DNA of 64,000 nucleotides from a phage, in the sequence record PZ402301.1, one strand, 5' to 3'. Of the stretch, positions 56,926 to 58,321 are shown in pieces. The stretch's first letter is position 1, and each line of letters opens with the position of its first letter. A model generated the notes under the pieces. That model had not been told where the DNA came from. It searched no databases and was given only the letters and a program-made list of their open reading frames with translations. A program made the position numbers and the translations under genes.

Positions 56926-57705
56926 TTAATTAAAAATATATACTTCATCAGTTCCGTTCTTTTCTTTGGAATGATATATGTTAAAGACGTATTTTTTATT
57001 AAGATGCTTAACATTATATTTTTTAGACCATTCTTTAAGAAGAGTGTTTTCCTTTCCGTGATGCTCTAAAACATTCGACAGTCCAAATTTTATTCCTCTA
57101 TCATTTAAAGAGTCTAAAAGATTTAAAAGGTCTTTTTCTTCGTCTTCTGACCAAAATTTATTATAATCGGCAACTGTTATGAGATATGGAGGATCAACAT
57201 ATACAAAATCGCCATCTAGAATTTTGACGTCTTTAAAATGCAATGAGCTAAAAATTATTTTATCGCAATTTTGTTTAAAGTGATTAAAGCGTTTTTCACT
57301 ATTTTTGTTTATGGTTCTTTTTCCAAATGGAGTAGTAAAATTTCCTTTGTCATTTATGCGAATCATATTACTAAACCCATGAAAATGAAGAACATAAAGC
57401 AAAAGAGGATCTCTAGTTTTATTATAATCTTCGCGTAATTTCAAAAACTCTTCTTTTGATGTTTTTGATAATTTGTATTGCTTTATTACTTTTAAAACGT
57501 CATCCCATGACACGCTAATAAGACGTTTATACATTTCAATAATTGGTTCTTGAATATCATTAGCCAATACAGGACCATCGACATTCAAAGATACTGATAA
57601 ACCTCCGCAAAATAAATCCACGAATCTGTCATATTTTGGAAAGTGAGACTTAAGTTCAGGTAATAATGATTGTTTATTACCTGTATACGCAATAGCTCCT
57701 AGCAT
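56926..57705 (-). CDS. dam: Dam DNA adenine (GATC) methyltransferase
   Basis: 259 aa; SAM-binding FCGGLSV and catalytic DPPY motifs. Confidence 0.9.
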
Positions 57706-58265
57706 TATATTCTCTCATTTATTGCAGCAAAAAACGAATTATATAATTCTTCATCATATTTATTTGATAGTAATACTAACACGTTTTGTGATTTAGCATA
57801 TTCATTAAACCTTGCTTGGATGGTTGGATTATCAGTAAATGATTCTCTTTTTGTCCACCTATTACGCGGATAATATCCGCATGGCAAAAAATCTAATATC
57901 ATCAATGACACAGGATTTTCAGTTTTTGTGTATTCTTTTAATTTATCTTTATCTTCTAAATATATTCCAACAGAATCAATAGCTGTACCTCCACCAACTT
58001 GATGTTTGATTTCAATTATATGCTTTTTACCGTTGCGAGAAATAACAATATCAAATCTTCTAGTACGCTTCTTAGTTGTAAAATTCGAACAAAACAAATT
58101 ATTTGATTTTTCAGTATCATCAGTTAAAACCATTTTTTCTTGATAACTAACTGAACAATCAGTGAAATACTCTTTTACTTTATTAAGTATGAAATTCTCA
58201 ACTACAGCAGATATTTTATATGAATCTCCGTTTAAAGCCATTTCATGCACAATTTTATTAATCAT
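57705..58265 (-). CDS. hypothetical protein, 186 aa, with PD-(D/E)XK-like nuclease signature; translationally coupled to dam
   Basis: Stop TAA overlaps dam ATG (TAATG); GAGGA RBS; promoter 58286-58321; motif [18 protein letters not shown]. Confidence 0.65.
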
Positions 58266-58285
58266 TATATTATCCTCAGCAGTTT

Positions 58286-58321
58286 ATTTTATAATACCAC
58301 AACAAGCTGAGAAAGTAAACA
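58286..58321 (-). promoter_or_regulatory. early promoter-like element upstream of the 186-aa ORF and dam
   Basis: GTTTAC (rc of 58315-58320), TATTATAA -10. Confidence 0.55.

Follow-up and report, generated by a model that had tools for sequence, protein, structure and literature searches.

The Dam enzymes of phages T2 and T4 have served for decades as model DNA methyltransferases, and they belong to phages whose DNA is already hypermodified. What such a phage does with a Dam methylase, and where the enzyme comes from, are questions raised again by a T-even type locus in which an ORF of 186 codons stands directly in front of dam. The window, the whole 64,000-nt stretch of phage DNA analysed here (PZ402301.1), comes from a T-even phage, and its closest records are those of Shigella phage TB004 and Escherichia phage GEP001. 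An earlier note had described the ORF as coupled to dam, equipped with its own expression signals and perhaps without a counterpart in T4, and had read the two genes as a restriction-modification-like or methylation-guided nuclease pair because of a D...(D/E)XK motif in the upstream product. The features of the locus are collected in Table 1.

Table 1. Features of the dam locus and their positions in the window.
Feature	Position	Strand	Remarks
186-aa ORF (phrog_8706)	57705..58265	minus	ATG 58265-58263, TAA 57707-57705
dam, 259 aa	56926..57705	minus	start ATG 57705-57703; downstream neighbour of the 186-aa ORF
TAATG stop/start overlap	57703..57707	minus	TAA of the 186-aa ORF and ATG of dam, one base common
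Ribosome-binding site GAGGA	58273..58277	minus	7 nt 5' of the ATG of the 186-aa ORF; read from the sequence
Early-type promoter-like site TTTACT-17-TATTAT	58291..58319	minus	TG upstream (sigma-70/T4-early-like); consensus match only
Codon of helix glutamate E23	58197..58199	minus	186-aa ORF
Catalytic core peptide (predicted), aa 70-87	58005..58058	minus	D72, E85, K87
GGGTAIDS segment, aa 91-98	57972..57995	minus	directly after the catalytic strand; G93-S98 invariant
Stretch absent from T4	approx. 57790..58338	minus	alignment; k-mer offset jump 11 -> 560
gp56 dCTPase gene	56347..56880		neighbour
Primase gp61 gene	58567..59595		neighbour
66-aa ORF	58370..58570	plus	neighbour; hydrophobic, membrane-like; phrog_2024, unknown function

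The ORF exists and is read from the minus strand; its TAATG overlap with dam and its GAGGA ribosome-binding site are as the earlier note had them. The downstream product matches Pfam MethyltransfD12 (PF02086; 1e-50) and the NCBIfam dam model TIGR00571 (235 bits), and the T4 and T2 records label the homologous methylase gene dam; these similarities identify it as a Dam-family GATC N6-adenine DNA methyltransferase, the GATC specificity being assigned by homology to T4 and T2 Dam. The arrangement of the overlapping stop and start codons indicates translational coupling of the two frames. The promoter-like element noticed at the same time stands in part: the sequence is present, and the depositors of phage Lutter annotate a promoter just 5' of the start of the homologous gene, but sites of this kind are no more frequent in the region than in shuffled sequence (12 found against 12.3 expected).

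The surroundings of the pair are variable. The 66-aa plus-strand ORF, which the T2 record names 'similar to RB69ORF029w', is convergent with primase gene 61, whose stop it overlaps by 4 nt; it is intact in T4 (about 3127..3435 of locus L003) yet without annotation in NC_000866. Because this ORF is present with or without the 186-aa gene, it is probably not part of the same cassette. Inside its 5' end lies a terminator-like hairpin (58382..58407, minus strand; an 11-pair stem, then a T-run), which has gene 61 on one side and the promoter of the 186-aa gene on the other and could insulate the ORF-dam unit from the primase transcript. Gene 61.2 (59764..60120, minus strand) is another length polymorphism of the region, with 118 aa in the window and in T2 as against 208 aa in T4. 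In a metagenomic relative (L008, 63% identical), the nuclease-like gene and the 66-aa ORF are separated by an extra 93-aa gene (3657..3938), whose product matches the C-terminal half of phrog_4856, a family of nucleoside triphosphate pyrophosphohydrolases. An Rfam search of positions 55000-61000 gave no match, and plus-strand ORFs of 45-64 aa within the 186-aa gene were rejected as chance frames, the coding signal of the minus strand being strong.

The 186-aa ORF is a real gene under purifying selection. Its product matches phrog_8706, a family of 'unknown function', end to end (1e-114), and tblastn finds the gene in 164 phage records, nearly full length in 155 of them. Every record with a near-full-length gene calls the product 'hypothetical protein', T2 among them (T2_31, AYD82628), and the ORF is also present, unannotated, 5' of dam in the 1988 record of the 1.5-kb T2 dam clone (M22342). 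Against T2, dN/dS is 0.14 (Nei-Gojobori; dS 0.166, dN 0.023), and more distant pairs, in which dS is saturated, give 0.15-0.43. The gene is nevertheless far from universal: about a quarter of 694 locus-matching records retain it.

The family is tiny and confined to T4-like phages. Searched with an HMM, 1.84 billion representative proteins gave 12 family representatives at E<1e-3, and a profile run against 5.8 billion proteins recovered the same dozen members; two further hits (P0016, P0017) are apparently spurious repeat matches, and one (P0010) aligns only over the last ~30 residues. Neither search, of 1.84 billion or of 5.8 billion proteins, yielded a bridge to bacterial enzymes. Scans of IMG/VR and JGI metagenomes place family members in T4-like phage loci only, and the 185,579 bacterial and archaeal species genomes of GTDB hold no homologue, so that no bacterial restriction-modification system anchors a functional assignment.

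We therefore turn to the protein itself. An AlphaFold2 model built with eight family sequences (mean pLDDT 78.6, pTM 0.79) comprises helices 2-11 and 15-33, strands 38-47, 67-77 and 80-88, helix 106-113, strand 119-124, helix 147-160, strand 163-167 and helix 172-185. Its core follows the alpha-beta-beta-beta-alpha-beta order of the PD-(D/E)XK fold, and the residues expected of such an active site (E...D...E-x-K on helix 1 and strands 2 and 3) are found where that fold places them: the long helix 15-33 bears E23, the second strand carries D72 and the third both E85 and K87, all within blocks modelled at high confidence. These four residues are invariant among nine homologues down to 29% identity (alignment A4). 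Other invariant positions include Q42, S54, R69, H82, H88, Q89, the GTAIDS stretch (93-98), P118, S120 and D125, and the most conserved parts of the protein are in fact the active site and the segment right behind it. Residues 92-101 have low pLDDT in the model of the free monomer; from its place and conservation, we regard the GGGTAIDS segment as a candidate DNA-recognition element.

Structural comparison points in the same direction. The closest match of the model is MunI, at 14% sequence identity, followed by Can2, VC1899, McrC, BstEII, BsoBI, PspGI, PfoI and Bse634I, with BsaWI, NgoMIV, AgeI, Cfr10I, EcoRII-C and EcoRI further down. Foldseek ranks PD-(D/E)XK nucleases first against the PDB, and most of the named matches among viral models are nucleases of the restriction or PD-(D/E)XK type, with TM around 0.4 in both cases. 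Single-sequence and profile searches of solved structures found no sequence relative of the protein. The D...(D/E)XK arrangement that the earlier note had picked out in residues 70-87 is thus borne out, with restriction endonucleases as the best structural matches, and the model predicts a restriction-enzyme PD-(D/E)XK fold with an intact E...D...ExK site. We predict that the ORF encodes a small nuclease resembling type II restriction endonucleases and that phrog_8706 is a new, compact, phage-only family of restriction-fold nucleases.

The history of the locus reveals how a T-even Dam can come to stand alone. The dam-61 interval of T4 is 309 bp long with nothing annotated in it, which agrees with the tentative remark of the earlier note that T4 has no gene at this position. 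Compared with the window, T4 carries a clean 549-bp deletion flanked by CAAA microhomologies; the promoter-like site, the ribosome-binding site and roughly the first 158 codons are gone, and of the ORF only the final 84 nt remain. Records beyond T4 found by tblastn hold remnants spanning residues 159-186. Close to the 3' end of the ORF, a T-run of six T in the window has five in both T2 (L004, about 3020..3046) and the T4 remnant (L003, about 3126..3210), a 1-nt deletion common to the two. In T2, this frameshift swaps the last seven residues, gives a product of 181 aa and abolishes the overlap with dam. The shared deletion suggests that the T4 lineage already had a T2-like frameshifted allele prior to the 549-bp deletion. 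Phage KarlGJung (Bas37; L012, 1801..1986) has undergone a separate partial deletion which leaves residues 122-179, and this remnant is annotated as a 61-aa hypothetical protein. Taken together, these alignments indicate that the gene is ancestral at the 61/dam locus and has decayed several times. Since it has been lost or damaged repeatedly, any benefit that it confers must be weak or conditional.

The same decay may be read to mean that the protein is a relic, or now serves another purpose such as DNA binding or modulation of Dam, or that the ORF is a translated leader which drives translation of dam. Many PD-(D/E)XK proteins are non-catalytic, and frequent loss, truncation and frameshift, as well as the low model confidence in the segment after the catalytic strand, would be in keeping with a function of this kind. 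However, all four catalytic positions and 19 further residues are invariant at 29-63% identity, dN/dS is well below 1, and conservation of both fold and active site is not expected of a mere leader. We consider a non-nuclease role unlikely.

The strongest argument for a restriction-modification type pair comes from genomic context, as read from the loci recovered. In nine independent loci (9/9), the family gene abuts or overlaps a Dam-family methylase gene, and in every locus recovered the methylase directly 3' of it is of the D12 class. Junctions were read in seven loci and in L017, and the frames overlap or abut in each, despite changes in the junction itself: TAATG in L008 (63% identical), TAAATG in L005-L007 (54-56%), a 7-nt overlap in Klebsiella phage KPV15 and the KPV15-like contig L017 (43-44%), and 20-35-nt overlaps in the most distant members, L009 and L010 (about 30-35%). 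The cassette occupies three different sites, namely (I) the interval from gene 56 to primase gene 61 (the window, L005 and L008), (II) a site downstream of rIIB (Jiaodavirus), and (III) one immediately 5' of rIIA (L010). From pair to pair, the divergence of the ORF correlates with that of Dam (r 0.78). The gene arrangement is thus that of a type II restriction-modification system, in which nuclease and methylase genes are adjacent and co-expressed. Dam without the ORF occurs, as in T4, and the ORF without Dam was never found among the loci recovered; this asymmetry is as expected if a restriction-modification pair loses its restriction half and leaves an orphan methylase behind.

A selfish mobility nuclease would account for some of this pattern. 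Making homing-type cuts in co-infecting relatives that lack the cassette, it would have the ORF and dam copied together during repair. The T4 Seg and Mob enzymes, however, carry GIY-YIG or HNH domains, and the 186-aa protein has no Pfam match to either domain even at E <= 1. Moreover, the absence of the gene from T4 is a deletion scar and not an empty target site, and homing does not explain strict coupling to the methylase at about 30% divergence. We hold a homing nuclease to be quite unlikely, and note that it overlaps with the main explanation, as restriction-modification cassettes themselves behave selfishly.

As a separate observation on the same interval, phage IME537 (MT179807 / NC_054921) has an extra ~0.6 kb with an annotated homing endonuclease between genes 56 and 61, and T4 has segF beside gene 56. 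Mobile nuclease genes seem to settle preferentially in the gene 56-61 interval.

The one recurrent signal from outside the phage family is that of DpnII, a family of GATC-specific type IIP enzymes. Pfam PF04556 (DpnII family) is the top match of the 186-aa protein (E 0.0021), at 17.9 bits against a gathering threshold of 23, and thus below the score for family membership. The model matches four of nine family members at E<=1, the best at 8.3e-5. Similarly, PADLOC PDLC03548 is the top match in that collection (7.8e-5) and recognises three of the nine, the best at 5.3e-6; this is the DpnII model, on which DpnII itself scores 420 bits. The DpnII query used for comparison reaches 336 bits on PF04556, and S. 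pneumoniae proteins named DpnII share 99-100% identity with it. BLASTP of the ORF product against it aligns residues 68-100 with DpnII 197-229 (E 0.003; DpnII segment KRFDFVIK..YLIEVNFYSGSG), and in hhalign the two family profiles align over 91 columns (P 4.2e-4, probability 34%). The latter alignment pairs E23 with E152, D72 with D201, E85 with E214 and K87 with N216. Of the family-invariant DpnII pattern, E152, D201 and E214-x-N216...K224, the two glutamates and the aspartate align, the fourth position is K87 and not asparagine, and an aligned counterpart of K224 is not evident. Only DpnII positions 124-226 align, out of a full-length family architecture of about 280 aa. A further PADLOC model, PDLC03569 ('REase_II', 205 positions), matches DpnII residues 95-286, which tells us that N-terminally shorter DpnII relatives exist in defence-system catalogues; one phage member matches it at E 0.004.

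In sum, the DpnII signal is recurrent and consistent, with all scores sub-threshold, and we take it as suggestive. By these comparisons, the kinship of the 186-aa protein with DpnII is distant at best, its N-terminal part is shorter, and by the criteria of the family it is not a member. The profile and structure checks that the earlier note had proposed thus lead to PF04556 as a sub-threshold top match and to a predicted PD-(D/E)XK fold; its restriction-modification-like pair is supported in part, by fold, active site, DpnII-like signal and linkage to Dam, and the protein scores below the DpnII family thresholds. NCBIfam gave noise only. Kinship with EcoRI did not stand up: its motifs resemble those of the protein (EAKHQG, GNAIER), but neither BLASTP nor hhalign backs the resemblance (the EcoRI query matches PDB 1ckq over residues 2-277). 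An EcoRI/MunI-like enzyme would show similarity in sequence or profile, with the GNAxER recognition motif as part of it; no significant similarity of this kind was found, and the motifs serve as a lead only. MunI and EcoRI, of the alpha class of type IIP enzymes, recognise AATT cores, and their partner methylases differ.

The same fold is compatible with an enzyme of the opposite preference. A DpnI-like, methylation-dependent nuclease would cut Gm6ATC in cytosine DNA, including DNA newly methylated by the co-expressed phage Dam, and degrade host DNA for nucleotides while sparing the glucosyl-hydroxymethylcytosine DNA of the phage. Such an enzyme would have abundant target in Dam-positive hosts and would explain the early co-expression of nuclease and methylase. 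The protein is, however, a single PD-(D/E)XK domain of 186 aa without a winged-helix or other methyl-sensing domain, and its best sequence matches are to DpnII, which methylation blocks, and not to DpnI. The T2 dam clone M22342 also contains the ORF and was, presumably, maintained in E. coli, an argument that is weak because the T2 allele is frameshifted at its 3' end. We judge methylation-dependent cleavage to be improbable. Least probable is a strand-nicking or structure-specific repair nuclease (MutH-, Vsr- or junction resolvase-like) which would let Dam marks choose the strand in replication or recombination, even though MutH, a GATC-dependent PD-(D/E)XK enzyme that reads Dam marks, offers a precedent and Vsr, Hjc and RecU are among the weaker fold matches.

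All four of these readings rank below a restriction-modification cassette. The pair is best read in this way because of the fold, the invariant catalytic residues, the DpnII-like match and the constant linkage to Dam, and we give about an even chance to its most specific form, an R-then-M cassette whose first gene encodes a small type II-like endonuclease with a DpnII/MboI-related core and GATC as its target. In such a cassette, the ORF and dam would be transcribed early from the ORF's own promoter, with coupled translation, and would have been inherited and relocated as one unit among T4-like phages. The nuclease would depend on Mg2+ and, like MunI or DpnII, would probably act as a homodimer. 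Its site would be the one that Dam protects, GATC, a specificity that we infer only from the partner methylase, and it would probably cut unmethylated GATC in ordinary cytosine DNA, methylation blocking the cut.

Phage DNA would be doubly immune to such an enzyme, owing to Dam methylation and to glucosyl-hydroxymethylcytosine inside GATC. The enterobacterial hosts are Dam-positive and their DNA is already Dam-methylated, which leaves a DpnII-like enzyme with few obvious targets: host DNA would be mostly immune, and under-methylated foreign DNA becomes the plausible one. Likely targets would be co-infecting phages, plasmids, and DNA in dam-deficient hosts; alternatively, the pair may persist merely as a selfish restriction-modification module. 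T-even phages also degrade cytosine DNA with endonucleases II and IV, and redundancy with these enzymes would explain the frequent loss of the 186-aa gene. The putative nuclease half has been lost from T4 and from some three quarters of the phages close to it, which retain an 'orphan' Dam. We note that the order of R before M is unusual for a system that needs safe establishment. The full account, in which T2-type phages wield an active GATC-specific endonuclease of a hitherto unrecognised, phage-only family against competitor DNA that is under-methylated, Dam confers immunity and T4 Dam is a leftover, is possible, and we would place it somewhat short of an even chance.

An independent property of the window concerns the GATC site. 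Among the 256 tetranucleotides, GATC is the most under-represented in positions 1..64000, with 75 occurrences where a second-order Markov model predicts about 217 (ratio 0.35); CTAG (0.70) and TCGA (0.72) follow as the next palindromes. There are no GATC sites in the 186-aa ORF and two in dam. This scarcity would fit long-term selection against GATC in the phage lineage.

The gene itself is not new. Among the papers searched in full text, none describes the 186-aa gene or mentions a nuclease that goes with T-even Dam, and what appears new is only the functional assignment. In a narrow sense this bears on the earlier note, which had named an identical gene annotated at the same position in T-even genomes as a ground for refutation: T2 (T2_31) and more than 150 other T-even genomes have a 'hypothetical protein' at this place. 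The locus suggests a T-even 'orphan' Dam that survives from a restriction-modification cassette whose other half T4 lost. If this is true, it would provide a rationale for T-even phages encoding Dam and explain the origin of the classic T-even enzyme. An active nuclease would, furthermore, make these phages rare virulent coliphages with a restriction enzyme of their own, which might serve in competition between phages. Restriction-enzyme catalogues would then gain a new compact (186-aa) family, and phrog_8706, hypothetical in >150 genomes, would gain a function. The setting is unusual, with a nuclease gene placed before a methylase gene in a virulent, hypermodified phage.

Compared with known systems, the 186-aa gene shares with the free-standing Seg and Mob homing endonucleases the habit of a small nuclease-like gene that is variably present between conserved genes. 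It differs from them in its predicted PD-(D/E)XK fold in place of GIY-YIG or HNH, in being always linked to dam, and in an absence from T4 that is due to deletion. The closer likeness is to DpnII/MboI (PF04556; PDLC03548, PDLC03569), with which the helix glutamate and the RFD(I/F)VI...(I/L)IE(I/V) catalytic strands align, and whose partner, the Dam-like methylase DpnM, finds its equivalent in the D12-class GATC methylase downstream of the ORF. The GGGTAIDS segment occupies the position of G(G/S)SKLNE in DpnII. DpnII, however, has 288 aa as against 186 here, its residues 1 to about 123 being without counterpart, and uses E-x-N with a downstream lysine where the phage protein has E-x-K. Unlike DpnII, the phage system places the nuclease gene first, couples it to the methylase gene, and is found in T4-like phages only. 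The 'orphan' Dam of T4 and T2 is the same downstream methylase: in the window and in T2 it has its conserved upstream partner, whereas in T4 that partner gene is reduced to its last 84 nt.
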